Below, piece after piece: positions 3,167 to 39,805 of a DNA stretch of 39,805 nucleotides. Under the pieces are notes generated by a model. That model did no database searches. It worked only from the letters and a program-made list of their open reading frames with translations, and was not told the origin of the DNA. Source of the DNA: a virus; IMG/VR virus record IMGVR_UViG_3300039449_000008, one strand, 5' to 3'. The position numbers and the translations under genes are program-made. Each line of letters starts with the position of its first letter. Position 1 is the first letter of the stretch.

Positions 3167-3538
3167 TTAATATCTTCCTTTAAAGTGCAGATCATCGACC
3201 ATCGAATACAGGCCTTTATCGTCCTGATATTTTCTGAAAAGATCCGTAAGCGCTTCAACGATTAAACGATTCGCTGTGTTTCGAGAGTTCACAGATTTAG
3301 TGTCTACACACTCCAACAACTCGTTTAAATCGCGTTTTATGGTCAGCGGGATTGTGGTATCCAGCCGCGCCATTTTATCTTCAAAGAATTCCTCAACGAC
3401 GTGAGTTTTAAGCATTGCCTTCGCTTTGTCTAAGTGAGGCCGCGCTCGCTCAGGTGCTGCATTAACAGACAGGCCCGAGTGCTTTCGCTTGCCTTCCGTG
3501 TTTCCAGTCACTGGCTTTTTAGGCTTACCGATATCCAT
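3167..3538 (-). CDS. Small centromere-binding protein of the partition operon, ribbon-helix-helix type (ParG/omega-like).
   Basis: 123 aa. It has a basic, disordered-looking N-terminus (KPKKPVTGNTEGKRKH), then a beta-alpha-alpha pattern: TTIPLTIKRDL / NELLECV / SRNTANRLIVEALTDLF. Its start overlaps the parA stop (ATTATTT... 3538). Confidence 0.6.
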   Translation of the reverse strand: MDIGKPKKPVTGNTEGKRKHSGLSVNAAPERARPHLDKAKAMLKTHVVEEFFEDKMARLDTTIPLTIKRDLNELLECVDTKSVNSRNTANRLIVEALTDLFRKYQDDKGLYSMVDDLHFKGRY

Positions 3539-4212
3539 TATTTCAAACCCTCAGAAATAGCGATTAATTCTTTCGCGAGCATCTTAATTTCATGCCGCGC
3601 TTGATTTTGTTCGTCAAGATCAACAACAGAGCCGCCACCTTCAAAAATCCGCTGATAATCCAGCCGCCGCGTTGTTCTTGATTTTAATGTTGGCAGTTCG
3701 TACCCCTTCTGAATCATTCCCGCAAACGTTCCAGACTCCTTAGATGTCTTCAGCACCTGAGAAACCATAAAGTACGTTTCAGGCCGCTTAGCGTCGCGAA
3801 TTTCGTGTATCTCTTTAATGATGTCGACAATAGTGTCAGTAGCCCATACGTCAGCTTGTGTCGGCTGCACTGGTATCACGACAATGTCGGCTGACTTAAT
3901 CGCTTGCACTGTCAGCGCTTGCACCTGGGGCGCACCATCGACTACTACAAAATCACACCCCCGTTTAACGGCTCCAATTTCGCGGCTAATGTTTGTGCCC
4001 ATCGATGAAACTCTAAAAAAGCTTTCTTCTTCGCCGCTCACATTAGCCCGCGTTGCGGCCCAATCTAAAGCCGTGCCCTGTGGATCCATGTTCACCAGTT
4101 CGACCGTGTAGCCCATTGAGTCCAGCATAGCGGCCAGATTAATACTGGCCGTGGTTTTGCCGCACCCGCCTTTTTGATTTAAGAACGAAATCACCGTGCC
4201 TTTCATACACAC
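3538..4212 (-). CDS. parA: Partition ATPase ParA, a small type Ib-like enzyme with a deviant Walker A.
   Basis: NQKGGCGKTTASINLA deviant Walker A (KGGxGKT). 224 aa with no N-terminal DNA-binding extension. Internal VVVDGAPQ and VIPVQP motifs. Confidence 0.9.
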   Translation of the reverse strand: MCMKGTVISFLNQKGGCGKTTASINLAAMLDSMGYTVELVNMDPQGTALDWAATRANVSGEEESFFRVSSMGTNISREIGAVKRGCDFVVVDGAPQVQALTVQAIKSADIVVIPVQPTQADVWATDTIVDIIKEIHEIRDAKRPETYFMVSQVLKTSKESGTFAGMIQKGYELPTLKSRTTRRLDYQRIFEGGGSVVDLDEQNQARHEIKMLAKELIAISEGLK

Positions 4213-4313: not shown

Positions 4314-4538
4314 TTCCTAACTCACTGAAAAATAAAAGAAAAATAAAATAGATAAATTATCGACGGGATAGCTTCCGCTTTCTATTCATGCCGCTAGCAA
4401 GCTGAAGTGCTGGCGAATCCACCTTTAAAAAGAATATCAACCAACAACGGGCAAGCCTAAAAAAGTATACGAGATTAATCGTATAGTATGTATATTTTAG
4501 GCACACACAAATATATATATATGCACAAAATATACATA

Positions 4539-4632
4539 CATACCTACACCCCAAATATACATGTACATTTAGCTCCATTATATACGTATATAATGGAGCT
4601 AAATGTACATGTATATTTGGGGTGTAGGTATG
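4539..4632. repeat. 94-bp perfect palindrome, candidate telomere resolution site telRL.
   Basis: 4539-4585 is the exact reverse complement of 4586-4632. The dyad lies at TATAC|GTATA and the core reads CCATTATATACGTATATAATGG. It sits between parA and the protelomerase gene. Confidence 0.85.
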
Positions 4633-4724
4633 CTTTTGTGTGTGTTTTAAATATACATGCTTGCGTTGTGTGTCTTTATAGTGTACTTTTGTGCATGCTG
4701 GTTAATTAATAAGAGGGAATAGGC

Positions 4725-6308
4725 ATGGAAAATCAGAAAAAACGCGCAAGCCAAGGCACTGTCGACCTTGCCGCTGTTATCAGTGACACGATTGACCGTA
4801 TTAAAAAAATAGATGGCCACGCTGATTGGGATCAGTCAGAAAAGACACGTAGGCATAAGGTTTTAGCGGAATCAGTTAAAAACAAACTGCACGAAGATGG
4901 CCGCCGAAGCGATGAAAACAAGGTTTCGCTGGCAACCTATCGCCGTTATTTGACTGACGTTAGAAAAGCGATTACCGCCGAAAACATGCACCACCATAAC
5001 CTAGAAAAAAAGTTGGATGTATTGGCGCGGCGGTATCCAAAACACAACGCTGAATTGCTGGCTATAAAGCGCGACAACATTAGTGACACGCGACTGGCAC
5101 ACAAGGCGGCGCTTGAGTCTCTAATCGACGAATCAGAGGCTTACAGCGACTTGAAAGCGATCATCATTGATCATGAAATCATGCGTCATTTGTCAATGGC
5201 GTCCGCGCAAAAAACGAAACTATCAAACCAGCAGCAAGCGGCCCTTGAAGAAAAGAAACATAACGCTGTCGAAATTGACAAAGACTGGCTACTGGTTACG
5301 ACAGAAAGCCTTTTAAAGCCTGATACAGACAGCCAGATAAGCTTTGCGCGCTTAGCGCTTGGTATCGCGTTTGCTACTGGTCGCCGGGCGATTGAAGTGC
5401 TTTATCAAGGCAACTTTGAAGCGGCTGGAAAATATGAGCTCACATTTTCAGGCTTTGCGAAAAAGCGCGGCGGTGCTGATTACAGCAACAAAGCGCGAAT
5501 TTATACCATCGTACCCGCCTCTGACGTGTTAGCGGCGGTTGAACTGCTACGCCAACAGCCAGAAATTGAAGCCATGCGTAATGACTTTGGAAGCCTCCCA
5601 GAAGGCGAACGAAACCGCGCGGTTAACCATCGCGCGGCGGCAAACCTAAACAACACCGCCAAACGCGTTTTTGGTGATGAAACCCGCGTATTTCGTGACA
5701 GCCGCGCCGTATGGGCAAGGTTCGTTTTTGAAGAACATTTTCGCAAAGACCCGCGCTGGAAAAAATTAGACGAAGACGTATTCTGGCACCAGCAACTAGG
5801 GCACGAAGACCTAGACACCCAGCAAGCGTACAAGCAATTTAAACTAATCGATGTCGAGCGCGGAGGCGATCAAGACCGCCTTTCTGCAGTCAAAGCACTG
5901 GCCAGAAACCCAGAAGTTATGAAGCGTGGTGCATTACAAAAAATAAACGCCTGGGCGGTTTCAGTGCTTGAAAACGACCCTACTGACAAAATCACACAGC
6001 ATCGAATTATCAGCGAGCTTGGATCTGGCCGGGGCGTGATTAAAGACTGGCTAACACTTGCTGAAGATGCGTTAAACCTTGATCCGGTGGCAAATCGCAC
6101 CCAAAAACACGAAGAAAAGCCGCAAAGAAAAGAAGAAAGCAAACCAGCGGCCCAAATGGATAAACCGCGCATCCGCGCTACTAAAGACGGCGGCTGGTGG
6201 TTGGTGTCTATCGAGATTGACGGCGCTGAATATGAATACACATACCACGCCGACGAATATGGCCGTGGTGATGCTATGGCCGCCGCATGGGCTGAACACG
6301 CTGAATAA
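4725..6308 (+). CDS. telN: Protelomerase (telomere resolvase, TelN/TelK family).
   Basis: 527 aa with tyrosine-recombinase-like boxes ATGRRAIEVL, FAKKRGG, RDSRAVWARFVF, HQQLGHEDL and QQAYKQF. It is adjacent to the palindrome. Synteny par-tel-telN matches N15. Confidence 0.9.
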   Translation: MENQKKRASQGTVDLAAVISDTIDRIKKIDGHADWDQSEKTRRHKVLAESVKNKLHEDGRRSDENKVSLATYRRYLTDVRKAITAENMHHHNLEKKLDVLARRYPKHNAELLAIKRDNISDTRLAHKAALESLIDESEAYSDLKAIIIDHEIMRHLSMASAQKTKLSNQQQAALEEKKHNAVEIDKDWLLVTTESLLKPDTDSQISFARLALGIAFATGRRAIEVLYQGNFEAAGKYELTFSGFAKKRGGADYSNKARIYTIVPASDVLAAVELLRQQPEIEAMRNDFGSLPEGERNRAVNHRAAANLNNTAKRVFGDETRVFRDSRAVWARFVFEEHFRKDPRWKKLDEDVFWHQQLGHEDLDTQQAYKQFKLIDVERGGDQDRLSAVKALARNPEVMKRGALQKINAWAVSVLENDPTDKITQHRIISELGSGRGVIKDWLTLAEDALNLDPVANRTQKHEEKPQRKEESKPAAQMDKPRIRATKDGGWWLVSIEIDGAEYEYTYHADEYGRGDAMAAAWAEHAE

Positions 6309-10500: not shown

Positions 10501-13500
10501 TTACGCCAGCCCCAATGTCATTAAGTTGGCCGGAATGATCTTGCCAAATCGCTGATCTTTGCATTCGGGATCGAACCAGCCACGCGCTAAGCGCATCAAG
10601 TTCGGAATAGTCAGCGCCCCAAGTCGGTCGAGTCTGTCCAACGGTCGTTCAGCGGGTATAAACTGGTCACCTGTCGGCTTTTTTAACCATTCGATTACTG
10701 ATAATAAAATATCTTTTTGAGGGGGGGAGATTTTACTATTGGTTCTTATATTGTGTTCAATAATTTCTCCCCCCTCGCTGTAACCCGCATGGTTACTGGT
10801 TTCGATGCGTGATATTGGTAGTATTGAGCTGCTATCTGGCTGGCTATTTGGTAGGTCTTGCGTGGCTAAAAACTCGCTAACGGCGACGCTGTCGTCGTGT
10901 AAATCGGCGGTGGTGTCTTGCTGTAGTGCGTTTTCACCAATCGCGGCGCGCGCTGCGCAATAATCGTTTAATTCAGCGAATTTTTCAGGGTGAAGGCGGT
11001 AGAATTGAACGCCGTTTAATTTTTTCGCGTTAATGATAGGTACAAATCGTTCTAACAGGCCTTTGACGAATCGTGTGGCGCATGTTGGTACCGCATTAAC
11101 TTGCGGTCCAATGCGTAGCGCGTTGTATTCGTCGATGGCGGCTTGCGAGCTTGTGAGCATTGCGACAACGTCGCGCGCTTGCATAACGCTGTACTCACCC
11201 TCTCCTGTTAACGTATCCAGCCCCAGTGTCTCGAAAACCCGGTTTAGGATCTGCCAGCGCGCCATAATTAACCGGCGCTGTGTTAATACGACGCCCTTTT
11301 CGTTTTCCCAGTTTTCGACCTTGCTGACTTGCTCAGCAGTGCCGCGCAGCGTTTCAAGTCGTCTAATTTTTGTTAGTCCGCGACTGTCTAAAAATTCGAT
11401 AGTGTCGTCAGTGACATCGACGCCTAAATGTTTTTCGATTTCATAGCGCGCAAGCTGCGCAATTTGAACTGGCGTTAATAGCTCCTCTTTTTTGAGTTGC
11501 TTGTATTCGTCTTCAGTGGGGGTTGTCGCTGCGTGGATACGATCATGACGCGCGTTTTTAACGATGTCGCGGTCGTTGTTCATTTGCTCCGCGCCCATTT
11601 CTGCGGTGAGGTCGTCAGTCGCGACGGCGTTAATTTTCCAGCCGTCTGCGGCCATTAGCATTAAAGTGTGACTTATGTATTCGCTACGAGAGCGCGCTTG
11701 TGCTGTTACCACGTCAAGATACATATCATCAAAATTCGTGGTACGAATTGTCACGCCGTCGTCAGTGGCCTGCCAGTTTAATGTCTGACGGCTTGATTCA
11801 TACGCCGCTAATAAACCGCGTAACAGAGCATCACGATCGGTCTGGTGTGTGTCGTGGCTTGGTTGCATACCTAACAAAAAAGATTTAGCGCCCCGGTCGC
11901 GTCGTATCATTTGCATGATGTCGGAGGGCACAACAACGCCGTGGAAAAGCGCAAAATGGCAGTCAAACGATGCCGCCGCCGCGCGTATACTCACACCCGA
12001 TGAAATCACCGGGCTATAAATCAACACGTCGACATCAGCCGCAATGCGGTTAGGATCGTCAGAAAATTCGATGGAGGCTTTATCGCCTTTGGTTTCAGCC
12101 GTGATGCACAAAACGCGCGCTGCTGGCCAAGCGGCTTGCACACCTTCGGCAACCATGTGCGCTTTTTTGATTGAGTCAGTAGCTACTAAAATACGGTCAG
12201 TTTTCTTTTTTGCTGTATCGACAATTTGTTGATAAACAAACGCGACGTTATCACAGTAATTAACCGTCAAATCTGGGGCCGGTGAGTCAATTTCGATAAC
12301 GTGTATTGGCTCACCTGGTCGCGCCTGATTTAAAAACGTGATTAAAGAATCGTTGGCGTCCGCGTCAGCCAGTAACACTTTTTCAGCCGCCCGCGCCGCT
12401 GCCACCAGTTTGTTATAGGCTTTTACGGGGGCATGGATAGCGTCTTGCCCTGCCATAACGTGCCGTAACACTTGCGTTGCTTCGTCTACACATAGCAACT
12501 CGGCTTGTTTCCAGTACCAGTCAAATTCCTGCCTAACCACGGAGTTTACGCACGTCACCATGCGCGTATTCCATGACACGTTCACGGCGTCTAACTCACG
12601 ATAATGCTTTAGGTCCAGCTCGTTGGACATTTGATTAGCCAACGAAACCCGGTGAACAATCATACCCGCGCCGCCGTGCGCTTCGCGCATAAGTGGGCCC
12701 ATTACGCGTTCTGTTTTGCCGGTACCGTGTTTGGCTTTTAAAATGATCGATCCTTTTAAGCTGCGGACTAGGTCTAGCACAGTACCCGGAATAACGGCGT
12801 AACCTTCATCTGTGATTTCTGCATTAACTTTAATGTGTTGCACGTTATCACCCGCTAGGGCTTCATCACTAAAATTCTTAGTCGCGGCGGCCATCGCAAA
12901 ACGCTGCTTCACGCACCAGCTCAAAAAGCCCTTGATCGTCGCTAACTGTTTCGCGTTGGCGCTGGCTTGTTTTGGTATTGATTTCAATATCTCACGCGCC
13001 ACGGCTTGGCGGTTGTATTCGTGCGGTACCAAAGCGGCCCCAGCCGAAGCCGCGCGCTTGGCGGCTTTCATAAAGCCGTTTTCGCCGGTCAGTTTTAATA
13101 GCTGCAACTTGTTTAAAAACATGTTTTTTTCAGGCGCAAGGCGCAAGTCACGCGCGGTTAGCTGCTTAGCAACGACGCGCAAACCGCCCAACATTTCAAG
13201 ATCGTTATAATCGGTTGGGTGGTCGTTAATGCTGAATTGATCGAAGCTCGGAGCAGAGGCTTTAACTTTTTTGGCGGTTAATAAGCCTGCCAGTTCAAGC
13301 GCTGCAATAACGCCCGCATTGCCCTTACCTTCCAGAAATTTAAAATGGTCGTTATCCGCGCGAATGACGTGCTTTTTACTGTCGTATAAATACGCGTAAT
13401 GTTTAACGCCACGGGTAAGCCCGTTTTTATCAAAACACACCACCACGGCGATATTGTTGCGGCCCGCTAATACGTGGGCTTTATACACACTCGACCCAGT

Positions 13501-14343
13501 CGCGAAACCTTCAACATAATCAAGCTGGTCAGCGCTGTGAATGTCACCGATAACGATATGCGCTTGCGACATATCAGAGCCGCGCGCGTGGGCTTTACTG
13601 CCGTCCGGGTAGATACGTTGCTGGCCACAATACGCACCCGAAAAATTAATCATCGGAATAGCTAACCAACCGCGCCAGCGTTTACGAAACTTGGTTTCGC
13701 CGCCTTTATAAAATTCTTTACCGGCAACCAAACGCGGCCCCATGTCGCCACACGCCGCGATCACATCCGGCGTAATGCCCTTTTTATTAGCGTAGGAGTA
13801 TTTTGCAACCTGGGCGGCGTTAGTAATGCCGTGTTCGTATCGAATTTGGTAGATTTTGCGTCGTTGCGAGGTGTGCTTTTTTAACCTGCGTTCTTCACGC
13901 GCATTTTTTTCGGCTTGAAGTTCACGTACTTTCTCTTTGCGTAAACGAGCCACACGTATTTTGTCGCGCTCGACATCGTTTAACAGCCGCCCGCCTTCGC
14001 GCTCGAATAATTCCGTAAGGGCTTCATAGCCGTGCCAAAACACAGTAGAACCGCCGTTGGCGTGGGTCGTAAATTGGATGATTGGGTAACGTATGCCGTT
14101 ACGAGCTTCACGCCAGTTTAATTCCATTAAGTGGCGTTGCTTGCGATCCGTTACCGCGATGTCTTTGTTTTTAAGCAAACGACCTGGGGATAATTTAGCC
14201 GTGTTCGACTTATACCAGTCGATATCAACTTCAGCCGCCGTGGCGTTAATGTCGCTTGAAAACTCGTTTAACCAGTCTTCGTGGTGTTCGTTGTCACCGA
14301 AACGATCTTGCCAAAACGTCTTGAGTCCAGTGTTTGTATTCAT
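10501..14343 (-). CDS. repA: Replication protein RepA, a primase-helicase fusion as in N15 RepA / P4 alpha.
   Basis: 1280 aa. Toprim-like VVVCFDKNG and IRADNDHF in the N-terminal third. Walker A KAKHGTGKTE and Walker B LLCVDEATQ in the middle. Confidence 0.9.
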   Translation of the reverse strand: MNTNTGLKTFWQDRFGDNEHHEDWLNEFSSDINATAAEVDIDWYKSNTAKLSPGRLLKNKDIAVTDRKQRHLMELNWREARNGIRYPIIQFTTHANGGSTVFWHGYEALTELFEREGGRLLNDVERDKIRVARLRKEKVRELQAEKNAREERRLKKHTSQRRKIYQIRYEHGITNAAQVAKYSYANKKGITPDVIAACGDMGPRLVAGKEFYKGGETKFRKRWRGWLAIPMINFSGAYCGQQRIYPDGSKAHARGSDMSQAHIVIGDIHSADQLDYVEGFATGSSVYKAHVLAGRNNIAVVVCFDKNGLTRGVKHYAYLYDSKKHVIRADNDHFKFLEGKGNAGVIAALELAGLLTAKKVKASAPSFDQFSINDHPTDYNDLEMLGGLRVVAKQLTARDLRLAPEKNMFLNKLQLLKLTGENGFMKAAKRAASAGAALVPHEYNRQAVAREILKSIPKQASANAKQLATIKGFLSWCVKQRFAMAAATKNFSDEALAGDNVQHIKVNAEITDEGYAVIPGTVLDLVRSLKGSIILKAKHGTGKTERVMGPLMREAHGGAGMIVHRVSLANQMSNELDLKHYRELDAVNVSWNTRMVTCVNSVVRQEFDWYWKQAELLCVDEATQVLRHVMAGQDAIHAPVKAYNKLVAAARAAEKVLLADADANDSLITFLNQARPGEPIHVIEIDSPAPDLTVNYCDNVAFVYQQIVDTAKKKTDRILVATDSIKKAHMVAEGVQAAWPAARVLCITAETKGDKASIEFSDDPNRIAADVDVLIYSPVISSGVSIRAAAASFDCHFALFHGVVVPSDIMQMIRRDRGAKSFLLGMQPSHDTHQTDRDALLRGLLAAYESSRQTLNWQATDDGVTIRTTNFDDMYLDVVTAQARSRSEYISHTLMLMAADGWKINAVATDDLTAEMGAEQMNNDRDIVKNARHDRIHAATTPTEDEYKQLKKEELLTPVQIAQLARYEIEKHLGVDVTDDTIEFLDSRGLTKIRRLETLRGTAEQVSKVENWENEKGVVLTQRRLIMARWQILNRVFETLGLDTLTGEGEYSVMQARDVVAMLTSSQAAIDEYNALRIGPQVNAVPTCATRFVKGLLERFVPIINAKKLNGVQFYRLHPEKFAELNDYCAARAAIGENALQQDTTADLHDDSVAVSEFLATQDLPNSQPDSSSILPISRIETSNHAGYSEGGEIIEHNIRTNSKISPPQKDILLSVIEWLKKPTGDQFIPAERPLDRLDRLGALTIPNLMRLARGWFDPECKDQRFGKIIPANLMTLGLA
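10722..10774. repeat. Inverted repeat GGGGGGAGA / TCTCCCCCC clamping a 35-bp AT-rich spacer inside the repA 3' region, candidate internal ori.
   Basis: Read directly: 9-bp arms at 10722-10730 and 10766-10774, with spacer ttttactattggttcttatattgtgttcaataatt. Confidence 0.3.
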
Positions 14344-14643: not shown

Positions 14644-15297
14644 TTATAAGCTATCGTCAGAAAGCCAGATAAATCCTGTAACTAAACCAAGAATCTGATC
14701 TTTACTATTGAGAGCTTCGGGTGGGTACATTCGATTTAGATAAGTAATCCAGTGGTGACGGCCATCAAATTCATAACGTCCTAAAATCATGATTCCATCA
14801 ACATTAAACAAACAATCGTCACCGGGTTTTGCATCTTTAACGGGGCTAATAATAGCCACGCCGTTTCTGTAGTAGCTATAACCGCCCCGATCACTCTCCA
14901 TTGTTATCATATCAATATGATAGCCATACGACCCAGCAGCACACCGCGCCGGTATGGTTACTGATTTGCCGGTTTTCTGGTTGTTCATATCGACAACATC
15001 AACAGATCTATTTTGAGGTGCAGCAATATAATCTTTGCCACTTTCCCTTACGCCAGTCTGAAGTTCAGCCAGATCCCCGGATTTCGCTTCTTTTATTACG
15101 TCAGAGGCTTCAACAGATAAGACGTCGCATATTTCTTCAAAAATCGCCCACGAAAAATTAACCGGAACTCTTTCGAGTTTCGATAAATAAGCGGCTGAAA
15201 GCCTGTAATCAGTGGCCGCGCATAGGTCTTCTTGAGTCATTCGCAAAGACAGCCGCAAACGCCTAATGACCTTTCCTACAAATGGAGTGTTTTTCAT
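14644..15297 (-). CDS. cI/LexA-like repressor with an XRE HTH and an S24-like C-terminal domain.
   Basis: N-terminal IRRLRLSLRMTQEDLCAATDYRLSAAYLSKLER. Linker RCAAGSYG (compare LexA RVAAGEP). C-terminal PGDDCLFNVDGIMILGRYEF...ILGLVTGFIW, matching the lambda CI / LexA fold pattern. Confidence 0.8.
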   Translation of the reverse strand: MKNTPFVGKVIRRLRLSLRMTQEDLCAATDYRLSAAYLSKLERVPVNFSWAIFEEICDVLSVEASDVIKEAKSGDLAELQTGVRESGKDYIAAPQNRSVDVVDMNNQKTGKSVTIPARCAAGSYGYHIDMITMESDRGGYSYYRNGVAIISPVKDAKPGDDCLFNVDGIMILGRYEFDGRHHWITYLNRMYPPEALNSKDQILGLVTGFIWLSDDSL

Positions 15298-15357
15298 ATA
15301 GATGATCTTACAGGCTCAAAATGCAATATTTATTAACTATGGCTTTACAAGAAACTA

Positions 15358-15367
15358 AACTATAGTT
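15358..15367. promoter_or_regulatory. Perfect 10-bp palindrome AACTATAGTT in the divergent cI/rightward-operon region, candidate operator.
   Basis: Read directly. It contains TATAGT in both orientations. A half-copy AACTATGG lies at 15335-15342. Confidence 0.4.
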
Positions 15368-15442
15368 AGATTTGTAGGTGTGAAAACAACCACGTTGCCA
15401 TTATTGGGTTTTGGTAACAGGTAATCCACGATAGGGGAATAT

Positions 15443-16030
15443 ATGATGGACCACTCTCATAGTCTGTCGCTCGATAGTATCTTGCTGTCAGCAACAAAAG
15501 ATTACTTGGCGAATTCCGCAGACACGCAGCGGACTTTTGCCGAAAAACGCTTATTGCCACAAATTCAGGCGCACGGCGTACCGGGTCCAAGGCCGCCGGG
15601 TGATTCCACGACCGTCGACGAATACACCGCCCGCATTAACAACATGCAAAACACGTACAGCCGAATCATGAACGGAACCAGCTTAATCCCGTTGGCTTGG
15701 CTATGGCCGTGGGTGTACGCCCTGCCAATCTCCTATCGATCACGCGTTGTTAATCAGATCCGCGCCCAATTACCCGACACCGTACCATCGTTAGCCACTG
15801 GTGCCAGTACCCACGCGAATATAGGCCGTTTAGCGACTGAAGCCGGCGAAGCCATTACATCATTAGCAGGCATCGCCGCTGACGGCGTTTACAACGACGA
15901 AGATGATCCGAAAGAAGTTAAAGCCGCGCTGAATGAACTTTACGACCTACGCGACCAAGCACAAGCCGAAGCCGAAGCCGAAGCGCTTGAGTCCGGTACC
16001 GGCTTAAACGTATCACGCACTAACCGCTAA
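15443..16030 (+). CDS. Hypothetical 195-aa protein in the cro/cII position, a possible lysis-lysogeny regulator.
   Basis: First rightward gene opposite cI. Acidic (EA)n C-terminus. Only a vague resemblance to P2/186 CII-type regulators. Confidence 0.4.
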   Translation: MMDHSHSLSLDSILLSATKDYLANSADTQRTFAEKRLLPQIQAHGVPGPRPPGDSTTVDEYTARINNMQNTYSRIMNGTSLIPLAWLWPWVYALPISYRSRVVNQIRAQLPDTVPSLATGASTHANIGRLATEAGEAITSLAGIAADGVYNDEDDPKEVKAALNELYDLRDQAQAEAEAEALESGTGLNVSRTNR

Positions 16031-16043
16031 TTTAGGGGGCAAT

Positions 16044-16664
16044 ATGTTGACAGACGCCGGTAAAAACAATCTGAGAAGTTTTATATTTTCAGTGTTTTCA
16101 GTGCATGCGCCGTCTCGTAGCTTTGACTATGCCGCGATACGAGTGCAGTCGTCCGCGCCTGTGTCTGCCCCTATGCCTGTGACCATGTCACAACTCGAAA
16201 ACAGGTCATACGTTGCCGCCATTCGCCAGCTATCAACACCCGCCGCCGCGTGGGTACGTTGGGCGTATGCGAGCCGACACTCAGACGCCGCCAACCACGA
16301 TATGGAAATCGTCGCGCGGAATCTATGGGATGACTACAGCAGCACCCTGCACAGCACCACCGAAGAACAACGCGAACGAATTATGCGACTTGTACAGCCA
16401 GCAATGGAGCAAGTCGCATTCGTTCAGCGTTTAGGAAAAAAACGATATAGCCGCGCCGATTTGTACGATCTAACGTGCTGTCCTGAAAGTTCATGGCAAC
16501 GCGATATGCAACCGCATTGGAAAGCACTCCAAGACAATCTTAAAAACCAAGACAACGCCGCCCTACGCCGCCTAAGCCTGATTTTTGACATTGTCGATCA
16601 ACGTAAAGCGCTTGGGAGCGCTAACGAAATTGCCGCAGATGCACAAATGAGCATTGCGGTTTAA
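16044..16664 (+). CDS. Hypothetical 206-aa protein, a possible Q-like late antiterminator.
   Basis: Position matches Q in the N15/lambdoid immunity regions. The STPAAAWVRWAYA segment is reminiscent of Q-family proteins. This is a weak call. Confidence 0.3.
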   Translation: MLTDAGKNNLRSFIFSVFSVHAPSRSFDYAAIRVQSSAPVSAPMPVTMSQLENRSYVAAIRQLSTPAAAWVRWAYASRHSDAANHDMEIVARNLWDDYSSTLHSTTEEQRERIMRLVQPAMEQVAFVQRLGKKRYSRADLYDLTCCPESSWQRDMQPHWKALQDNLKNQDNAALRRLSLIFDIVDQRKALGSANEIAADAQMSIAV

Positions 16665-16730: not shown

Positions 16731-18140
16731 ATGCTTTTAAAACAACTCACAACGTATCAGATCGAAATGCCTACCACGGCCACTGACCAGCCAATCGCGC
16801 TGGTGCCAACGGAATGGCGCGATCATATCGAGCAAAGTGCTCAATCCATGCGCATACGCCCGCTAACGGCGCTACAGCAAACAGGCTCAGGATTTGAGCC
16901 GCCCTTGCATAAAATAAACAGTGAATACGTTGTGGCCGCCGATTCGTGCGGGTTGTTGTTGCTGTGTTACCGGATTGATACCAAGGCGATCAACGCTGCA
17001 GGCATTAAAGAATCGGTAGAAGCAAAAGCCAAAATCATTGAACACGAAGAGGGCCGTCGCGTTCGTAAATTAGAGCGCGAAGCAATCCACGACGATTTTG
17101 TGACAAAAGCACTTCCGCACATCCAACCCACACCAAAGCGCATTTTAATATTGCTGGACCTACGCCGGTACCGCGTTTTGATTGGCACAAAGTCAGAAGA
17201 CTTGGCGACGACATTACGCCGATTATTAGCAGAACACATCGTGCCAGGTTACGAAGTTGAAACCGCTGACGAAAAAGAAGTACGCCGCCCGCGCTTCATC
17301 GTCGATAGCAACTGCAAAGGCGACCCGCGCGAACATTACCGCCAGTGGATGATTCAAGGCGTTCAAGGGCTGCAACTGCATGACGGCGCATACCTCGAAA
17401 AAGAAGCCTCAAAAAACATCATCGTTACCGGGCAGGCGAATGACGCCCAGGTTATCACCGATGCATTAGATGACGGTTACCAGCCGTTTCAGGTGTCTGT
17501 CAGTGTGATGAATACCGAAGCCGACAGCGTTATCGCTGACGTTGTGCTTGATCGTTTCGGCCAATACACGGCAATACGTATCCCCGGCCATCTTGAAATC
17601 ATCAAAAGCACCCACGAAGACGAAAAAGAAGCCGCGATGGCAGACCTACACGCGAACATGGTGCTCACAGCAGGTACAGCACACGACGTAGAACACGCAG
17701 TAAAAGTGGCATTTGGTGACCAGCTTGAAATCCAAGATATATTAAAAAAAGCACTTGATATGCAGCGAACCGCAACTATTGGAACCTCTCTAATTTCTAA
17801 AGTGATGGCTACCGCGTGTTTAAATATGCCAACTGATTCAACCCAGACCATGACATACAAAGTCGGTCAAGGATCAGAGCCAATCGCCGCCCATCCTGAG
17901 GTGATTACAGTTAATGCGCCCGCGATAGAAAGTGAAGCTGATTACAGTATTTATCCCGCCGCTCGTAGTTTCGTCATGGAAAACCAGAAATGCTCGATAT
18001 CAACACTTCAGCGACATCTACGCATTGGCTACAACTATGCCGCGCGAATAGTTGAGAAGCTCGAATTTGAAGGCGTAGTAAGTAAGCCAAGCAACAACGG
18101 CACTCGTAAAGTTTTAATAAGTGAACTAAGCAGTAATTAA
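16731..18140 (+). CDS. rdgC: RdgC-like recombination-associated protein fused to an FtsK-gamma winged-helix domain.
   Basis: The N-terminus MLLKQLTTYQI...LCYRIDTKAINAAGIKESVEAKAKIIEHEEGRRVRKLEREAIHDDF parallels E. coli RdgC. The C-terminus CSISTLQRHLRIGYNYAARIVEKLEFEGVVSKPSNNGTRKVL parallels FtsK gamma. Confidence 0.75.
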   Translation: MLLKQLTTYQIEMPTTATDQPIALVPTEWRDHIEQSAQSMRIRPLTALQQTGSGFEPPLHKINSEYVVAADSCGLLLLCYRIDTKAINAAGIKESVEAKAKIIEHEEGRRVRKLEREAIHDDFVTKALPHIQPTPKRILILLDLRRYRVLIGTKSEDLATTLRRLLAEHIVPGYEVETADEKEVRRPRFIVDSNCKGDPREHYRQWMIQGVQGLQLHDGAYLEKEASKNIIVTGQANDAQVITDALDDGYQPFQVSVSVMNTEADSVIADVVLDRFGQYTAIRIPGHLEIIKSTHEDEKEAAMADLHANMVLTAGTAHDVEHAVKVAFGDQLEIQDILKKALDMQRTATIGTSLISKVMATACLNMPTDSTQTMTYKVGQGSEPIAAHPEVITVNAPAIESEADYSIYPAARSFVMENQKCSISTLQRHLRIGYNYAARIVEKLEFEGVVSKPSNNGTRKVLISELSSN

Positions 18141-19897: not shown

Positions 19898-20280
19898 ACA
19901 TCGCCATGGCTAGGCTTGCCGAAAAATTAGGCATTGATCACGCAAAAATGACGCGCGAAAAAATGGCTGAAGTAGTCAGCGAAAAAGCACTGTTGCACAT
20001 TATTGAATTAGAGCGTGTGAACCATATACCCGCCGCTGGAGAGGTGTTTGGTGTGATAGCGGGAAAATATGAAGGTAATGAAATAAATTGCAAATATAGC
20101 GCCGAATTCCCAACTCTAGATGAAGCAATAGAATCCTATGATCAAGTAATAAGCTGTCCTTGGGCTTATATTTTGTACAAAGGCCGCATACTTGGTTTAT
20201 TTTCAAAAACATTCTATCCATTAGATTTTCCCGCCGCTGGTGATATGGTTCGCGAGGTTCGTCATGAATCCGGTTGTTAA
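19894..20280 (+). CDS. Hypothetical 128-aa protein.
   Basis: ORF with 4-nt start/stop overlap to the upstream gene. No motif recognised. Confidence 0.45.
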   Translation: MNIAMARLAEKLGIDHAKMTREKMAEVVSEKALLHIIELERVNHIPAAGEVFGVIAGKYEGNEINCKYSAEFPTLDEAIESYDQVISCPWAYILYKGRILGLFSKTFYPLDFPAAGDMVREVRHESGC

Positions 20281-21136
20281 CACCTATTTTTCCGGCATAG
20301 GCATGTTAGATATAGGCCTGCAAAACGCGGGTATGACGATAGGGCAGGCGTTTGAATTAGACGCTGATGCTTGCAAGACATACCGCGCAAATCATAGCCA
20401 CAAACTGATAGAAGGCGATTTATCTAAACAATTAGTTTTAGACCAAGACGCTTGCGACATGATGGCCTTCACATACCCTTGCACTAAATACAGCCGTATT
20501 GCAGACATTCACGGTACCCGAACCGGCGACGAATTGTTTTTGCATGCCTTGCGTCATTTAGCCATTGCCCGCCCAGAGGCTTACAGCGTCGAGAATGTGC
20601 CAGGTATGCGCGCCTTTCCCGTGGTAATGGAGGCGATGACAAAAATGCCTGATTATTACATACAAGTATTTTGCCCAGTGAAAGCCACAACGTGGTTACC
20701 CCAACGCCGTGACCGTTTGATCATTCTTGGCACAAAACGCCGGTTTAATGTTCGCCCGCCTGCACACACAAAACCAATGACACTGGCTGAAGTGATAGAG
20801 ACTGACCCGCGCGTAACGGTACCAAAAGCAGTATTTGAGCGAATGAAGGGATCGTACCGAGATTTGCCTATTATTTCAGATCCAGAAAAAGGCGATATCG
20901 CGCCCACATGCGTGGCCCACTATGCAAAAGATAAAAGCACACGGTTAGTGGTTGATAAACGTTTTAAATTAGGTGTTCGCCCTTACAGTGTCCGTGAATA
21001 TGCGCGCCTTCAAGGCCTACCTGATTCGTTTGTATTCCCAGTGTCCGACACGTCCGCATATCGCCAAATAGGTAATGGCGTACCGCCTCAAATGGGCGAA
21101 TGGTTGGGTGATGAAATGATGCGGTATTTTAATTAA
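20264..21136 (+). CDS. dcm: DNA (cytosine-5)-methyltransferase with no adjacent endonuclease.
   Basis: Motifs I YFSGIGMLDIG, IV TYPCTKYS, VI VENVPGM, VIII LPQRRDRLIILG and X QIGNGVPPQM. The start was chosen at MNPVVN; the track ORF begins at 20240. Confidence 0.9.
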   Translation: MNPVVNTYFSGIGMLDIGLQNAGMTIGQAFELDADACKTYRANHSHKLIEGDLSKQLVLDQDACDMMAFTYPCTKYSRIADIHGTRTGDELFLHALRHLAIARPEAYSVENVPGMRAFPVVMEAMTKMPDYYIQVFCPVKATTWLPQRRDRLIILGTKRRFNVRPPAHTKPMTLAEVIETDPRVTVPKAVFERMKGSYRDLPIISDPEKGDIAPTCVAHYAKDKSTRLVVDKRFKLGVRPYSVREYARLQGLPDSFVFPVSDTSAYRQIGNGVPPQMGEWLGDEMMRYFN

Positions 21137-21991: not shown

Positions 21992-22067
21992 CCAAGAGCT
22001 TTGCTGTGTGAGCCACAGCGAACATCTGACAAAAGTGAATTGTTATTTCACGAACTGGGGTTTTAAA

Positions 22068-22769
22068 ATGAAAGTAATCAGCTACGGAGCGGGAACAAAT
22101 AGCGCTGCTATGTTGGTAGGATTTAAGCAGCGCGGAATAAAGCCTGACGTAATTTTATTTGCTGACACAGGCGGCGAGAAGCCGGAAACATACGAGCATT
22201 TGAAAATAATGCAGCGTTGGTGTCTAGATAACGGATTTCCGGAAATATCTATATGTAGAGAAAAGCAAACATTAGAATCTGACTGCTTAAATCGTAAGGC
22301 ATTGCCGGGGTTGGCATACGGTTTCAAAAGTTGCAGCGAGCACTACAAAATCAGACCACAAAAGCGCTGGCTTAAAGCCAACGGCATTAAAGCAGAATTG
22401 TTTTACGTTGGCATAGATGCTGGCGAATCACACAGAATTAAAGACGATCCAAGCACTGAGTATCCATTGATAAGCTGGGGATGGGGCCGTAAAGAATGTA
22501 TTGATGCAATTGAAAAAGAAGGATTGCCGTTGCCGGGGAAAAGCAGTTGTTTTTTTTGCCCTGCAATGAAAGCCGGAGAAATTCGCGCTCTCAGCGTGCA
22601 GCATCCAGAATTAATGGATCGTGCTTTAAAAATAGAAAAAAATGCAAATTTAACAGTGGCGGCGGGGCTTGGGAGGTCATTTAGCTGGAGTAGCGTTATC
22701 GCAACAGAAGATATGTTCCCTGAGCTTTACAACAGTACGGAGATTGCTTGCGGCTGCTATGACGGCTAA
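22068..22769 (+). CDS. PAPS-reductase-like / PP-loop (adenine nucleotide alpha-hydrolase) family protein with a Cys cluster.
   Basis: The N-terminus KVISYGAGTNSAAMLVGF...DVILFADTGGEKPETY resembles the SGGxDS PP-loop region. Cysteines occur at CSEHY, SSCFFCP and ACGCY. The ATG at 22068 is preferred over the GTG at 22008. Confidence 0.55.
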   Translation: MKVISYGAGTNSAAMLVGFKQRGIKPDVILFADTGGEKPETYEHLKIMQRWCLDNGFPEISICREKQTLESDCLNRKALPGLAYGFKSCSEHYKIRPQKRWLKANGIKAELFYVGIDAGESHRIKDDPSTEYPLISWGWGRKECIDAIEKEGLPLPGKSSCFFCPAMKAGEIRALSVQHPELMDRALKIEKNANLTVAAGLGRSFSWSSVIATEDMFPELYNSTEIACGCYDG

Positions 22770-23516: not shown

Positions 23517-23831
23517 ATGCCTGAGAAAGAAACAATAGACACGACAGTCGGTTTTTGGGCTGACAATCATTTGTATATTTCCATGGCGGTTTTTATGTCT
23601 GTAGTAGTTGCTTATAGATTAGTAGGCACGGAGCCAATCAATATTCGCCGCTTAGCTGGCGAATTGATTCTGGCTTTAGTTGGCGCGGGTGTATTTCACG
23701 CGCTAGGCCTTCTTAAGGGGCTTTCTGGTCCTGAGTATTGGCTAATGATATTTCTTGCTGCCATGGGCGGTTTACGCTCGATTGAGTGGTCTTTAAAAGT
23801 GTTTATTGCGTTAAAAAAGGTGTCTATCTAA
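23517..23831 (+). CDS. Holin candidate.
   Basis: 104 aa with three hydrophobic segments (ISMAVFMSVVVAYRLV, LILALVGAGVFHALGLL, YWLMIFLAAMGGL). Immediately upstream of the endolysin, overlapping it by TAATG. Confidence 0.6.
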   Translation: MPEKETIDTTVGFWADNHLYISMAVFMSVVVAYRLVGTEPINIRRLAGELILALVGAGVFHALGLLKGLSGPEYWLMIFLAAMGGLRSIEWSLKVFIALKKVSI

Positions 23832-24262
23832 TGTCAGGTTTAAAGTTTGGTAAACGTTCTGAATCAAACTTACAGACCTGTGATGACCGCCTTCAGCGAA
23901 TAGCACGCCGCGTGTTGTCTTATGGTGTGACTGATTTTTCAGTAATTGAAGGCCATCGCACATTAGAACGCCAGCTATCCATTTATCACGCCGGTAAGAG
24001 TCAGATCGACGGCGTAAACAAAAAGGGTAAGCATAACGAATATCCAAGCCAAGCCATCGATGTATTGCCATATCCTGCCGTCGTTAACGGTGTCGACGTA
24101 TGGGCCGATAAACAGCGCTTTTGTGTACTAGCTGGTTTATTTATGGCCGCCGCCGCTGAAGAGGGCGTATCTATCCGGTGGGGCGGCGATTGGGATAACG
24201 ACGGCAATAACGCTGACAGCAACTTTAACGATTTACCACACATCGAATTAATAGAGGCCTAA
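23831..24262 (+). CDS. Endolysin, peptidase M15 (VanY / L-Ala-D-Glu peptidase-like).
   Basis: EGHRTLERQ, KHNEYPSQAIDV and NDLPHIEL correspond to the H...D...H zinc-ligand pattern of the M15 family. Confidence 0.8.
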   Translation: MSGLKFGKRSESNLQTCDDRLQRIARRVLSYGVTDFSVIEGHRTLERQLSIYHAGKSQIDGVNKKGKHNEYPSQAIDVLPYPAVVNGVDVWADKQRFCVLAGLFMAAAAEEGVSIRWGGDWDNDGNNADSNFNDLPHIELIEA

Positions 24263-24263
24263 A

Positions 24264-24815
24264 ATGAAATCAATAATCACCGTCATGATTACCATGGCAT
24301 TGTTTGCCTGTGCATCATCCCCAGCACTGGCCGCCAACGGCGAAAAGACAGCGTTTATGTTTGGCCTACTGGATAGCCTAGTCATTAATAAAGCCACTGA
24401 TTCGACAGTAGCAAATGACAAAGAAACAGAGAAAGAGACCACGGTAAATGATGCCGTATTAGCAGCACCTAAACCAGTTACTGACAGTAATCATAACGCT
24501 GATGGTGCTTTAGTTGCCGCTGCACTGGTTGGATTGATCGTTAATAAATATCCGGTTGGTTCGACAGTGGTGGCCTTACTCATTGCGCTGATGCCTCTGC
24601 TGCAGTTATTAGCTAACAGTACACCAAACCCAAAAGACAACGCGTTATTAATATTTATTAATAAGGTGCTGCAATCGTTAACACTGACCAGCTCAAAGAA
24701 TCAAATTAACACAGCGTCATGGTCGACATTATTAACGACCCGGCCAAAGTATTGGCCCGATGCGATCCGGACAGAGGATGTGTTGAAGGTGCACAAGAAA
24801 GTAACAGACAACTGA
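24264..24815 (+). CDS. Lipoprotein with an internal hydrophobic hairpin, in the third lysis-cassette position (possible spanin-like function).
   Basis: Lipobox MKSIITVMITMALFAC. Hydrophobic stretch GALVAAALVGLIVNKYPVGSTVVALLIALMPLLQLL. Confidence 0.45.
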   Translation: MKSIITVMITMALFACASSPALAANGEKTAFMFGLLDSLVINKATDSTVANDKETEKETTVNDAVLAAPKPVTDSNHNADGALVAAALVGLIVNKYPVGSTVVALLIALMPLLQLLANSTPNPKDNALLIFINKVLQSLTLTSSKNQINTASWSTLLTTRPKYWPDAIRTEDVLKVHKKVTDN

Positions 24816-25138: not shown

Positions 25139-25699
25139 ATGGCAACTCAAACCGAAGTCGCAAAACATCTTTTTATCAGCGACCGCCAAGTTCGTAATTT
25201 GATTACAGACGGCGTATTTGCTGGCACGAAGGGCAAAGGCGGTTTAGATATCGACGACTGTAGAAAGCGTTATATCGGCTATTTGCGCAGCATTAAAACT
25301 GGGCAAACAAATCCCGACTCAGAAAGCGGAAGTGATACCGCACCGGGTGACATCGTCGGCGGCATTAATATTCCGCTTCAAGATGCACGAAAAAAGAAGG
25401 CTGATGCAGATATTCGCGAGCACCGGCTCGCTGTTATGCGTCAAGAATACGCGCCGGTCATGCTGCTATCTGATGCCGTTATACGACTATCAGAAATGAT
25501 GGTTGCGCAGCTTCAAGCGCTGCCGATGAAATTAAAAGTGGCTGACCCGTCAATGACGGCGCGGTCAGTCGATGCGGCGAAAAAACAAATCGCTGATTTA
25601 TGCAACGGGCTGGCTGACATTGAACTCGACCTATCTGACTACACTCCAGTCGATCCGGACGGCAGTCAGGAAGGGGCTGAACCCGCTACGGATATCTAA
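25139..25699 (+). CDS. terS: Terminase small subunit (lambda Nu1-like).
   Basis: N-terminal HTH TQTEVAKHLFISDRQVRNLITDGVF..GTKGKGG, similar to Nu1 (KKQLADIFGASIRTIQNWQEQGMPV..GGGKG). Directly upstream of terL. Confidence 0.75.
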   Translation: MATQTEVAKHLFISDRQVRNLITDGVFAGTKGKGGLDIDDCRKRYIGYLRSIKTGQTNPDSESGSDTAPGDIVGGINIPLQDARKKKADADIREHRLAVMRQEYAPVMLLSDAVIRLSEMMVAQLQALPMKLKVADPSMTARSVDAAKKQIADLCNGLADIELDLSDYTPVDPDGSQEGAEPATDI

Positions 25700-27584: not shown

Positions 27585-27793
27585 TGGCAGACAAAGCAGC
27601 ACAATTAGACGCCATAAATAATGCAATCGCGTCCGGCTTAACTGAATTCACGTTCGATGGCCAGATATCTAAATACCGCTCACTGTCAGAAATGCGCGAT
27701 ATCCGCGACGAATTACGCCGCGAACTAGGTCAGATTACTAGCTCACGTACCAGCCGAGCTCGCACGTTTTCCAGTTACGACAAAGGCTATTAA
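27584..27793 (+). CDS. Head-tail joining protein (gpW-like).
   Basis: 69 aa in the position between terL and the portal. Helical pattern AAQLDAINNAI...YRSLSEMRDIRDELRREL, as in gpW. Confidence 0.65.
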   Translation: MADKAAQLDAINNAIASGLTEFTFDGQISKYRSLSEMRDIRDELRRELGQITSSRTSRARTFSSYDKGY

Positions 27794-27795
27794 AA

Positions 27796-31447: not shown

Positions 31448-31482
31448 GCCAACCCCGGCAAAGCTAAACAAAACCTAAAAAA

Positions 31483-31507
31483 GCCGGATTAAATTCCGGT
31501 TTTTTTA
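31483..31507 (+). terminator. Weak terminator-like hairpin after the capsid gene.
   Basis: gccgga-ttaaat-tccggt, flanked by an A run and a T7 run. Confidence 0.45.
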
Positions 31508-31546
31508 TCTGAAAAAAAAATTCAAAATTATTTAGGAGAAGCCACC

Positions 31547-31879
31547 ATGGCGACTACAAAATTCGCACCCGGTAACCCGCTCGATATCGTGTTGGCGTCA
31601 GCCGCAACATCCAGCGATTTAATTGTTTCAGGACAGATCGTAGGTATTGCACAAACCAGCGGCGAAACCGGCGACACTATCGCGCTTGATACCGAAGGCT
31701 GTCACGAGCTACCAAAAACCGACGATACGCAAACGTTTGCGGTTGGTGCTAAAGCGTATGCAACGTCAGCCGGCGCGATTACCAGCACGGCGTCAGGCAA
31801 CAAGCTATGCGGTTATGCCGTAGAAGCGAGCGCCAACGGTGACGCAACAGTTAAAGTCCGCTTAATTCCGGCGGCATAA
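31547..31879 (+). CDS. Head decoration / DUF2190-like protein.
   Basis: 110 aa rich in A/G/T/S. Pattern GDTIALDTEGCHELPK...GAKAYA...GYAVEASA..VKVRL is typical of DUF2190. Strong AGGAG SD. Confidence 0.65.
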   Translation: MATTKFAPGNPLDIVLASAATSSDLIVSGQIVGIAQTSGETGDTIALDTEGCHELPKTDDTQTFAVGAKAYATSAGAITSTASGNKLCGYAVEASANGDATVKVRLIPAA

Positions 31880-34041: not shown

Positions 34042-34394
34042 GCCAGCCACATCGCCGCGCGGCTTTGCGGCTGGCTTTTGCAATGGGCACATGGGATGTC
34101 GATGCCATGCTGGCTGAAATGCCAGCGTCATTAATGGCCGAGTGGGAACACTTTTTTGAACTAGAACCCCACGGCTCAGAAATCGACGCACTACGCGCCG
34201 CACAAACCACCTGGGCATTGGCAAGCATTCACCGCCAAGCCGGGAAAAAACAACCTGAACTAACAGACTTTGCCATCGGTTACCGCAAGCCGCGCGCAGT
34301 CGAACAGCCCTTGCATACGCTGGCTGAAAACCTAATGGAGGCCTTCGGTGTCGGCAAAAGTATACGACCTGACGGTCAGACTAAAGGGCGATAA
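33613..34394 (+). CDS. Tail assembly chaperone G-T fusion, made by a -1 frameshift at 34029-34035.
   Basis: The downstream frame encodes WDVDAMLAEMPASLMAEWEHFFELEPHGSEIDALRAAQTTWALASIH, matching the lambda gpT pattern. That frame has no independent ATG or SD. Confidence 0.6.
34029..34035 (+). promoter_or_regulatory. Candidate -1 programmed frameshift site A_AAC_CCC.
   Basis: An XXXYYYZ heptamer in the correct phase of the gpG-like frame. The -1 frame is open from here to 34394. Confidence 0.5.
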
Positions 34395-39676: not shown

Positions 39677-39805
39677 TTATTCCTGAATATTTTAAAAAAA
39701 TTCCGTATGTGGAAGGTGGCCGCGATTTTGGCGGCGCGGACTGTTACGGCGTTTTGAGGTTGTGGTTGCAATACAGGCAGATTGTCGATTTGCCCGCCTG
39801 GGGGA
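39673..39805 (+). CDS. 5' part of the NlpC/P60 peptidase gene; the same gene as 1-408, seen in the terminal repeat copy.
   Basis: The GTG at 39673 is in frame with IIPEYFKKIPYVEGGRDF. An upstream in-frame stop lies at 39613. Confidence 0.6.
   Translation, partial: MIIPEYFKKIPYVEGGRDFGGADCYGVLRLWLQYRQIVDLPAWG
39679..39805. repeat. Terminal direct repeat, copy 2, identical to 1-127.
   Basis: Same comparison as copy 1. Confidence 0.95.

Follow-up and report, generated by a model that had tools for sequence, protein, structure and literature searches.

A predicted telRL site beside a protelomerase gene in an uncultivated siphovirus-type phage

Telomere resolution has been described as staggered cutting followed by fold-back (PMC10612081). 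The isolated telomere phages have been divided into marine myoviruses and enterobacterial siphoviruses (PMC9170930, PMC10612081). Among them, phiHAP-1 and VP882 have been reported to possess contractile tails (PMC12042878, PMC9170930), and HMP1, a near relative of phiHAP-1, was found to be a linear plasmid by restriction analysis and is described with a 120-bp inverted repeat that sits between parA and telN (PMC9170930). Here we analyze a 94-bp perfect palindrome and the neighboring protelomerase (telomere resolvase) gene, tel, in the IMG/VR virus record IMGVR_UViG_3300039449_000008, a stretch of 39,805 nucleotides that is called the window throughout. An earlier note on this DNA had read the palindrome as a telRL-type site beside a protelomerase gene, in a phage that lysogenizes as a linear plasmid. 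That reading is supported by the homology of the protein, by its catalytic residues and modeled fold, by the surrounding genes, and by about 90 related loci, and it is very probable that positions 4539 to 4632 are a telRL that is resolved by the phage's own protelomerase to yield a hairpin-ended linear plasmid-prophage. Sequence comparison identifies the pair as a genuine telRL and protelomerase in a previously undescribed, uncultivated phage of the siphovirus type. It is a clear new example of the known system of N15, phiHAP-1, and VP882, with no new mechanism.

The palindrome compared with described telomere sites

The site and its gene comprise the following features, numbered by position in the window.

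4539-4632, no strand: telRL, predicted telomere-resolution site, a perfect palindrome of 94 bp (dyad at 4585/4586)
4575-4596, no strand: 22-bp core, CCATTATA-TACGTA-TATAATGG, made up of outer octamers and a central hexamer
4583-4588, no strand: central hexamer TACGTA, the putative hairpin turn between two staggered cuts
4505-4666, no strand: extended zone of imperfect symmetry, with 81-nt arms that are 81% complementary
4725-6308, plus strand: tel, protelomerase (telomere resolvase) of 527 aa, assigned by Pfam PF16684, TelK homology, and fold

The reverse complement of 4586 to 4632 is exactly 4539 to 4585, which gives the 47-nt arms and the dyad at TATAC/GTATA (the slash marks the dyad here and below) that the earlier note had reported. 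The first mismatch falls at arm position 48. This is the sole perfect zero-spacer palindrome with arms of at least 8 nt in the 39,805 bases, and the chance expectation for perfect arms of 47 nt is ~1e-24 by our own calculation (4e4 x 0.25^47). When single-stranded, the extended zone at 4505 to 4666 folds with -54.6 kcal/mol (z = -13 versus shuffles).

For comparison, the sites of isolated telomere phages were read from the phage records themselves.

This phage: CCATTATA-TAC/GTA-TATAATGG, perfect arms of 47 nt
N15: CCATTATA-CGC/GCG-TATAATGG, perfect arms of 11 nt
phiKO2: core as in N15, perfect arms of 14 nt
PY54: GCATACTA-CGC/GCG-TAGTATGC, perfect arms of 21 nt
phiHAP-1: CCATACTA-TAC/GTA-TAGTATGG, perfect arms of 46 nt
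VP882: core as in phiHAP-1, perfect arms of 12 nt

Aligned with the N15, phiKO2, and PY54 sites, the palindrome has the outer octamers of N15 and phiKO2 and a different center. The earlier note had given both the core of this phage and that of N15, CCATTATA-CGCGCG-TATAATGG, correctly; the latter was checked in the N15 record. The core of this phage reads as a hybrid that combines outer octamers of the N15 type with the hexamer of the closest Tel relatives, phiHAP-1 and VP882. The same note had singled out the perfectly symmetric arms as very long. At 47 nt they are indeed the longest natural case, but they extend only 1 nt beyond those of phiHAP-1 and are no outlier. Because phiHAP-1 has arms of 46 nt and many relatives have arms of 28 to 40 nt, very long arms are a trait of the clade.

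The nearest isolated relatives of this Tel are those of VP882 (45.7% identity) and phiHAP-1 (42%), and the N15, phiKO2, and PY54 enzymes are each ~30% identical. In phiHAP-1 the layout is the same as here, with the palindrome between divergent parA and tel genes and the RepA gene following tel. The central decamer TATAC/GTATA is identical, the perfect arms are shorter by a single nucleotide, and RepA is 34% identical. The two phages differ in the half-site (GTATAGTATGGG in phiHAP-1 versus GTATATAATGGA here) and in the distal boxes (GTGCATACA plus GCCC versus AAATGTACATGTATATTT plus GGGG here), and phiHAP-1 has no nucleotide-level similarity to this phage. Furthermore, this phage has a lambda-like virion module of the non-contractile kind, including a J-like tip protein, whereas a contractile tail has been described for phiHAP-1 and VP882. 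VP882 shares the TATAC/GTATA center and the position of the site, but its perfect palindrome is just 24 bp long, its flanks contain direct repeats, and its tail module is different.

N15 and phiKO2 share the mechanism and the genome logic with this phage, and they likewise have a lambda-like, siphovirus-type virion module. Their outer octamers, CCATTATA and TATAATGG, are identical to those found here, and the flanks of the N15 tos site carry degenerate copies of the arm-distal box, as do the flanks here (PMC12624138). In contrast, their hexamer is CGCGCG and their arms are 11 to 14 nt long, versus TACGTA and 47 nt in this phage. Their Tel proteins have 631 to 640 aa, so that the 527-aa enzyme is ~100 aa shorter, and the C-terminal region is different.

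The absence of a sheath-sized open reading frame (ORF), the J-like tip, the absence of megablast similarity, and a Tel only 42 to 46% identical to those of its isolated relatives place this phage outside the genus Hapunavirus, despite its hapunavirus-like Tel/RepA module. This "marine" Tel/RepA module is paired here with a lambda-like non-contractile virion module, and the split between marine myovirus-type and enterobacterial siphovirus-type telomere phages is blurred by that pairing. The understanding of telomere resolution is unchanged by this phage. What it adds to the small set of protelomerases is a well-defined enzyme/site pair with a compact 527-aa enzyme, a hybrid core, and long arms; orthogonal protelomerase/site pairs are useful for making closed linear DNA and for linear replicon engineering, and the literature includes papers on tools based on TelN/tos.

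Tel and the conservation of its site

The ORF at 4725 to 6308 begins 92 bp past the palindrome and contains the boxes FATGRRAIEVL, RDSRAVWARF, HQQLGHEDL, and QQAYKQF, which the earlier note had listed. The 527-aa product matches the Pfam family ResT-TelK_cat (PF16684) with an E value of 2.1e-24 and 86.5 bits (cutoff, 27), and it matches TelK in the Protein Data Bank (PDB; entry 2v6e) with an E value of 1.6e-58 over residues 13 to 451. The TelK-type N-terminal domain PF22853 scored 19.4 bits, which is under its cutoff of 28; residues 13 to 113 align to TelK residues 24 to 125 with an independent E value of 7.7e-6. The TelK residues R275, K300, H416, and Y425, reported as catalytic by Aihara et al. 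2007, align to R221, K246, H360, and Y369 of Tel, and R327 is the Arg in its DSR box. R389 was rejected as a catalytic Arg of TelK because position 389 is Ile; the conserved Arg aligns in the DSR box. When 28 homologs are aligned, R221, K246, R327, H360, and Y369 do not vary, and we predict that they form the active site of Tel, with Y369 as the nucleophile. A Y425F mutant of TelN has been reported to be inactive (PMC12624138).

An AlphaFold (AF2) model of Tel built on the 28-homolog alignment had a mean pLDDT of 85.8, and TelK, TelA, and ResT were the sole matches at an E value of ≤1e-3 when this model was searched against the PDB with Foldseek. The C terminus (residues 482 to 526, encoded at 6168 to 6305) was modeled confidently as a small domain of three beta-strands and a helix that is preceded by a disordered linker (residues 457 to 478). 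Residues K480, P481, and A517 are kept clade-wide. This domain is unexplained, because the sequence alignment with 2v6e stops at residue 451 and the model matches no PDB chain beyond TelK, TelA, and ResT at the same E value. The C-terminal regions of TelK and TelN are longer than that of the 527-aa enzyme and differ from it.

The comparative evidence was drawn from 72 loci found by a profile search of IMG/VR, 17 loci from isolate genomes and metagenome-assembled genomes (MAGs), and more obtained via exact-protein look-ups. In every locus with intact upstream sequence, the best-scoring feature upstream of tel was a palindrome. It lay 140 to 360 nt upstream of the gene where Tel was ~38 to 58% identical to that of this phage, and within this clade the TATAC/GTATA center was invariant, save in one lineage with a 57%-identical Tel (L108/L109, dyad at 2359), where the center is ATATGC/GCATAT. 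A Vibrio group with ~30%-identical Tel proteins has TTTAC/GTAAA at the center. On this comparison the central hexamer appears to switch with the Tel lineage (TACGTA, TGCGCA, or CGCGCG), and the C/G step at the dyad is kept.

Position-by-position analysis used 29 distinct sites having the TATAC/GTATA center, over which TAC/GTA is invariant. Symmetry between the left and right arms was 100% at arm positions 1 to 12 and 66 to 93% at positions 13 to 37; past position ~40 it dropped to 14 to 52% (mostly 0.2 to 0.4), which is near the identity between phages. The information content was 1.0 to 2.0 bits at positions 1 to 12, and between-phage identity at positions 13 to 35 was mostly 25 to 50%. Since symmetry is high where between-phage identity is low, the arms diverge between phages yet mirror each other within each phage. 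Conserved boxes were found at arm positions 1 to 12 (GTATAGWATGGG), 19 to 29 (GTGYATRCAC-like), and 34 to 37 (GCCC), and perfect arms of 28 to 46 nt were common. The half-site of this phage, GTATATAATGG(A), agrees with the clade consensus GTATA[G/T][A/T]ATGG at arm positions 1 to 11.

The same pattern is seen within the species in a sister strain (L012/L017, sample 3300039456), the Tel of which is 99% identical. This strain has complementary mirrored substitutions at 4573/4598, 4571/4600, and 4566/4605, for which the chance probability is ~7e-6. Positions 4552 and 4619 are both altered as well, but to T/T, and one-sided changes occur at 4541, 4626, and 4627, so that the perfect arms are 33 nt long. 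Because the changes there are unmirrored, the outer third of the palindrome (arm positions 34 to 47) is not under strict symmetry constraint. The mirror covariation of the inner arms points to selection as the force that maintains the symmetry of the site. The 29-site set, with mirror covariation to ~40 nt and three boxes, amounts to a testable map of recognition by Tel proteins of the hapunavirus type.

A more far-reaching interpretation is that the tel site of this clade is an ~80-bp symmetric nucleoprotein element with flank boxes, extending beyond the ~44- to 56-bp substrates of TelK and TelN, and that its symmetry is kept partly by active homogenizing of the arms, over and above selection for binding of a Tel dimer. 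We regard this as doubtful, in a single judgment that covers the larger nucleoprotein site, the homogenizing of the arms, and telomere capping together. If it held, the arms could be homogenized by gene conversion via cruciform or hairpin intermediates or by recombination between replicated telLL/telRR junctions, the 47-nt perfect arms of this phage would represent a recently homogenized state, and the extended site would cap the telomere (e.g., against SbcCD/Mre11-Rad50) besides serving in resolution.

One pair of related loci differs in the palindrome itself. In run ERR2497731, the MEGAHIT locus L009 is without the inner palindrome that is held by the Logan locus L010 (Tel 68% identical), and their sequences part at AAATATACATGTATATTT, a nested palindrome of 18 bp that is found in both arms. 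Either the assembler took a shortcut in L009, or L009 is a genuine deletion variant.

Resolution at the dyad and the linear state

The sequences directly show the palindrome, what enzyme tel encodes and which of its residues are catalytic, the gene neighborhood, and how the site is conserved and covaries in mirror fashion across the clade. We infer the cleavage positions, hairpin formation by this Tel on this site, and the linear state of the prophage. In the proposed sequence of events, phage DNA would enter the cell and circularize, and a Tel dimer would bind both identical half-sites. Staggered cuts, placed by analogy with TelK and TelN, would fall on either side of the dyad at 4585/4586, around TACGTA, and each top strand would be joined to its own bottom strand. 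Two covalently closed hairpins would result: telL, on the side of parA with 4585 as its last base, and telR, on the side of tel with 4586 as its first. The linear plasmid so formed would have tel at a distance of 139 nt from its telR tip and parA at 379 nt from its telL tip. RepA would replicate this plasmid, ParA would partition its copies, and Tel would resolve the duplicated telomere junctions after replication.

Contig ends in relatives bear on this model. In IMG/VR, ~28 contigs of relatives with Tel proteins 39 to 49% identical terminate 50 to 435 nt upstream of tel, and many of the contigs that end in the region of the dyad are of full genome length (36 to 39 kb). Seven of the ~28 begin -5 to +3 nt from the dyad, with L040 and L060 beginning exactly at it, and seven more extend 8 to 35 nt past it. 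At the end of L021, the 20 nt past the dyad are a 20/20 fold-back of the contig's own right arm, and they match the left arm of L020 at only 14/20 positions; the right flanks of L020 and L021 are identical over 200 nt. The perfect palindrome there is just 28 bp, so this fold-back is not a graph ambiguity. The L021 end is thus characteristic of either a telR hairpin or a telRR junction.

In addition, five assemblies (L037/L058, L088, L098, and L108/L109) are perfectly inverted-duplicated over 2.2 to 2.8 kb on each side of the dyad. These fold-back records are probably head-to-head dimer assemblies of ~38- to 40-kb hairpin-ended phage-plasmids, and they may be mis-described in databases. L098 is NZ_CP194023.1, "plasmid unnamed2" of Vibrio sinus S4M6 (77,518 bp), which is labeled "plasmid ... 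complete sequence"; L088 is IMGVR_UViG_2740892469_000001 (80,970 bp); and L108/L109 are scaffolds of the relative with the 57%-identical Tel. A separate record, L089 (NZ_JAIHOM010000047.1, "Spirulina subsalsa FACHB-351" NODE_168, 36,257 bp), is a contig of the size of an entire telomere phage in the assembly of a cyanobacterial culture; it ends 6 nt past the tel dyad, and its flank is 96% identical to IMG/VR locus L031. Its source is probably a heterotroph associated with the cyanobacterium rather than the cyanobacterium itself.

The phage in the window was also assembled from sample 3300039448, as a linear 39,677-bp contig with both ends inside the palindrome, one at window position 4594 and the other 13 nt past the dyad, and several Logan contigs of this phage stop ≤15 nt from the dyad. 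These ends are compatible with hairpin ends and were not counted as evidence. The use of Logan or JGI contig ends as proof of hairpins in this phage was rejected: a 94-bp palindrome leaves the assembly graph the same for telRL, telL, and telR at k <94, and only relatives with short palindromes (L020/L021) discriminate.

Several points weigh against the conclusion that this phage is resolved to a linear prophage. Given 47 nt of perfect symmetry, contig ends 13 nt past the dyad fit a hairpin or an intact telRL alike, and De Bruijn assemblers with k <94 may break at such a palindrome for technical reasons. Two samples (those of the window and of L012/L017) yielded the intact junction with differing flanks, and some molecules must therefore be unresolved, which fits virion or replicative DNA and, equally, a circular plasmid. 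A search of IMG/VR for telRR' or telLL' fold-back junctions of this phage (flank-N94-reverse complement) gave 0 hits, and no isolates with a Tel >46% identical were found. Neither a close relative nor a host emerged from the isolate and MAG genomes, where the best match was a Halomonas contig at 43%. Neither the 38-nt right arm nor the 22-bp core had an exact match in the JGI metagenomes, a result that is uninformative because the window's own contig is evidently absent there. In IMG/VR, the 22-bp core was found in just two contigs, both already known.

The alternative that fares best against these observations is that Tel and its site are functional but that the phage is mainly circular or integrated, with resolution occurring transiently, e.g., in replication intermediates. 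It accommodates the intact telRL assembled in two samples and the ambiguous end evidence for this phage. We nevertheless consider it very unlikely: no integrase was found among ORFs of ≥180 aa, Tel, RepA, and ParA, which together make up the plasmid-maintenance set of telomere phages, are all present, the relatives that have been studied are all linear plasmids (PMC9170930, PMC10612081), and in one sample the full-length contig is linear and broken inside the palindrome.

It is more improbable still that the palindrome is an uncut regulatory or maintenance element of the parA/tel intergenic region, such as an operator, a centromere, or a cruciform-forming origin. Such a role might be suggested by its position between divergent promoters, by the fact that partition sites of the N15 type are inverted repeats too, and by the terminator-like hairpins that a scan returns in this region, but a terminator would serve no purpose between genes that diverge. 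The core half-site is common to sites known to be cut by protelomerases (N15 and phiKO2), the site accompanies tel in every relative, its center tracks the Tel lineage (TACGTA, CGCGCG, or TGCGCA), and contigs of relatives stop or fold back exactly at the dyad. The notion that the palindrome is a chimeric fold-back made by the assembler, which might be raised because the window is a circularized metagenome contig with a 127-bp k-mer overlap and because fold-back mis-assemblies do arise in relatives, is effectively refuted already by flanks that differ outside the 47-nt arms (parA side versus tel side), by the recovery of the junction in two independent samples, the second with mirrored strain variation (L012/L017), and by the homologous palindromes of isolated phages.

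Flanking boxes and genome context

If 4539 to 4632 is the telRL on which Tel acts, its surroundings may contribute to binding of the enzyme. An 11-mer box, CATGTATATTT, has 7 copies in the window at ≤1 mismatch, and every one lies within 4487 to 4659.

4487-4497, plus strand: outer left copy, TATGTATATTT, a match to CATGTATATTT with ≤1 mismatch
4528-4538, minus strand: copy in the left flank, touching the palindrome, CATGTATATTT match
4553-4570, 4553-4563 on the minus strand and 4560-4570 on the plus strand: two overlapping head-to-head boxes in the left arm, CATGTATATTT matches
4601-4618, 4601-4611 on the minus strand and 4608-4618 on the plus strand: mirror pair of boxes in the right arm, CATGTATATTT matches
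4649-4659, minus strand: outer right copy, CATGTATATTT match

Four copies are thus within the arms, two are to the left, and one is to the right of the palindrome. The expected number is 0.94, and 7 copies were reached in 0 of 100 shuffles. The left-arm boxes at 4553 to 4570 correspond to the conserved distal box of the clade at arm positions ~19 to 29, and the CATGTATATTT box is found also in the closer relatives L008, L010, and L106. Unlike this exact box, a loose distal-box pattern, TGTRYATRYA, showed no enrichment and was rejected. By analogy with the L1-L3/R1-R3 repeats of N15 tos, the boxes probably recruit extra Tel molecules or Tel domains. In N15, L1/L2 and R1/R2 are degenerate copies of the L3/R3 motif, and these repeats have been proposed to load further Tel for end protection (PMC12624138).

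Purine-pyrimidine alternation peaks at 4480 to 4679, the strongest 200 bases in the window (z = 4.6), and the extended symmetric zone falls within this stretch. Of 28 related tel sites, 27 are enriched likewise (±100 nt), as are those of N15, phiKO2, and PY54, with a mean alternation (TA, CA, and TG runs) of 0.63 around tel sites versus 0.51 elsewhere. This feature may relate to flexibility of the DNA or to its bending by the enzyme.

A second, small inverted repeat had also drawn attention in the earlier note.

4466-4485, no strand: small inverted repeat TATACGA-N6-TCGTATA, single copy

The repeat is present as described, but it is within chance expectation and is not conserved, and it does not count as a significant feature. 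A match at ≤2 mismatches arose in 12 of 100 shuffles, and an uncompensated C>T change at 4480 breaks the repeat in strains L017 and L015. Its candidacy as an additional Tel site or as a centromere was rejected because it is a single-copy, chance-level, and unconserved element, and it is probably not functional. The significant feature of the flanks is the set of CATGTATATTT boxes rather than this repeat. Overlapping it at 4481 to 4491, ~95 nt to the left of the dyad, is GTATAGTATGT, which resembles a Tel half-site and agrees with the half-site consensus of the phiHAP-1/VP882 type at 10 of 11 positions. The count of such matches is within chance for the window, and GTATAGTATGT is weak evidence at best for a Tel-related signal.

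The window sequence is JGI contig Ga0310818_00299 from sample 3300040958. Its ends carry an exact 127-bp direct repeat (1 to 127 = 39679 to 39805), which indicates a circularized assembly (k=127-style) of a 39,678-bp genome. The 39.7-kb unit assumed in the earlier note is thus real. Given this circularity, the gene that starts near 39673 runs on into 31 to 408. Genes outside the tel region that could be assigned are as follows.

3538-4206, minus strand: parA-type partition ATPase, 222 aa, divergent from tel
3167-3538, minus strand: 123-aa gene directly downstream of parA (phrog_15913)
10501-14343, minus strand: repA-type primase-helicase replication protein, 1280 aa (phrog_4913, 3.6e-203)
14644-16664: cI-like, CII-like, and Q-like regulators
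23786-24262: endolysin
25139-31879: lambda-type TerS and TerL, portal, protease-capsid fusion, and decoration protein
34348-36360: tape measure
386-2938: J-like tip protein

The divergent parA operon and the lack of an integrase, both of which the earlier note had described, held up on inspection. PHROGs or Pfam searches with all ORFs of ≥180 aa revealed no integrase; the 183-aa ORF at 24264 to 24815 had no PHROG hit, and the remaining ORFs of this size were all assigned non-integrase functions. The gene set of a telomere phage (Tel, a RepA-type replicase, and ParA, without an integrase) is present. The best phage relatives of RepA are those of phiHAP-1, VP882, PY54, and phiKO2. The synteny of the 123-aa gene with parA is kept in relatives, and its position suggests that it may encode the centromere-binding partner of ParA. 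No ORF of >203 aa was found in the interval between the capsid and tape measure genes, so a tail sheath gene is absent and the virion belongs to the non-contractile kind. A megablast search with window positions 1 to 25000 against 50,697 phage records gave 0 matches.

Telomere phages have been described as "~50% permuted" in layout (PMC10612081). If packaging begins near terS, the terS start at 25139 puts telRL ~19.2 kb into the 39.7-kb genome (48%), which would fit this layout for a cos site at that position. Further genes in the early and late regions include a recombination-type exonuclease (16731 to 18140), the C-terminal residues of which (~398 to 465) match FtsK/SpoIIIE-like phage proteins, as well as a DNA methyltransferase and a PAPS-reductase-like gene (20240 to 21136 and 22008 to 22769).

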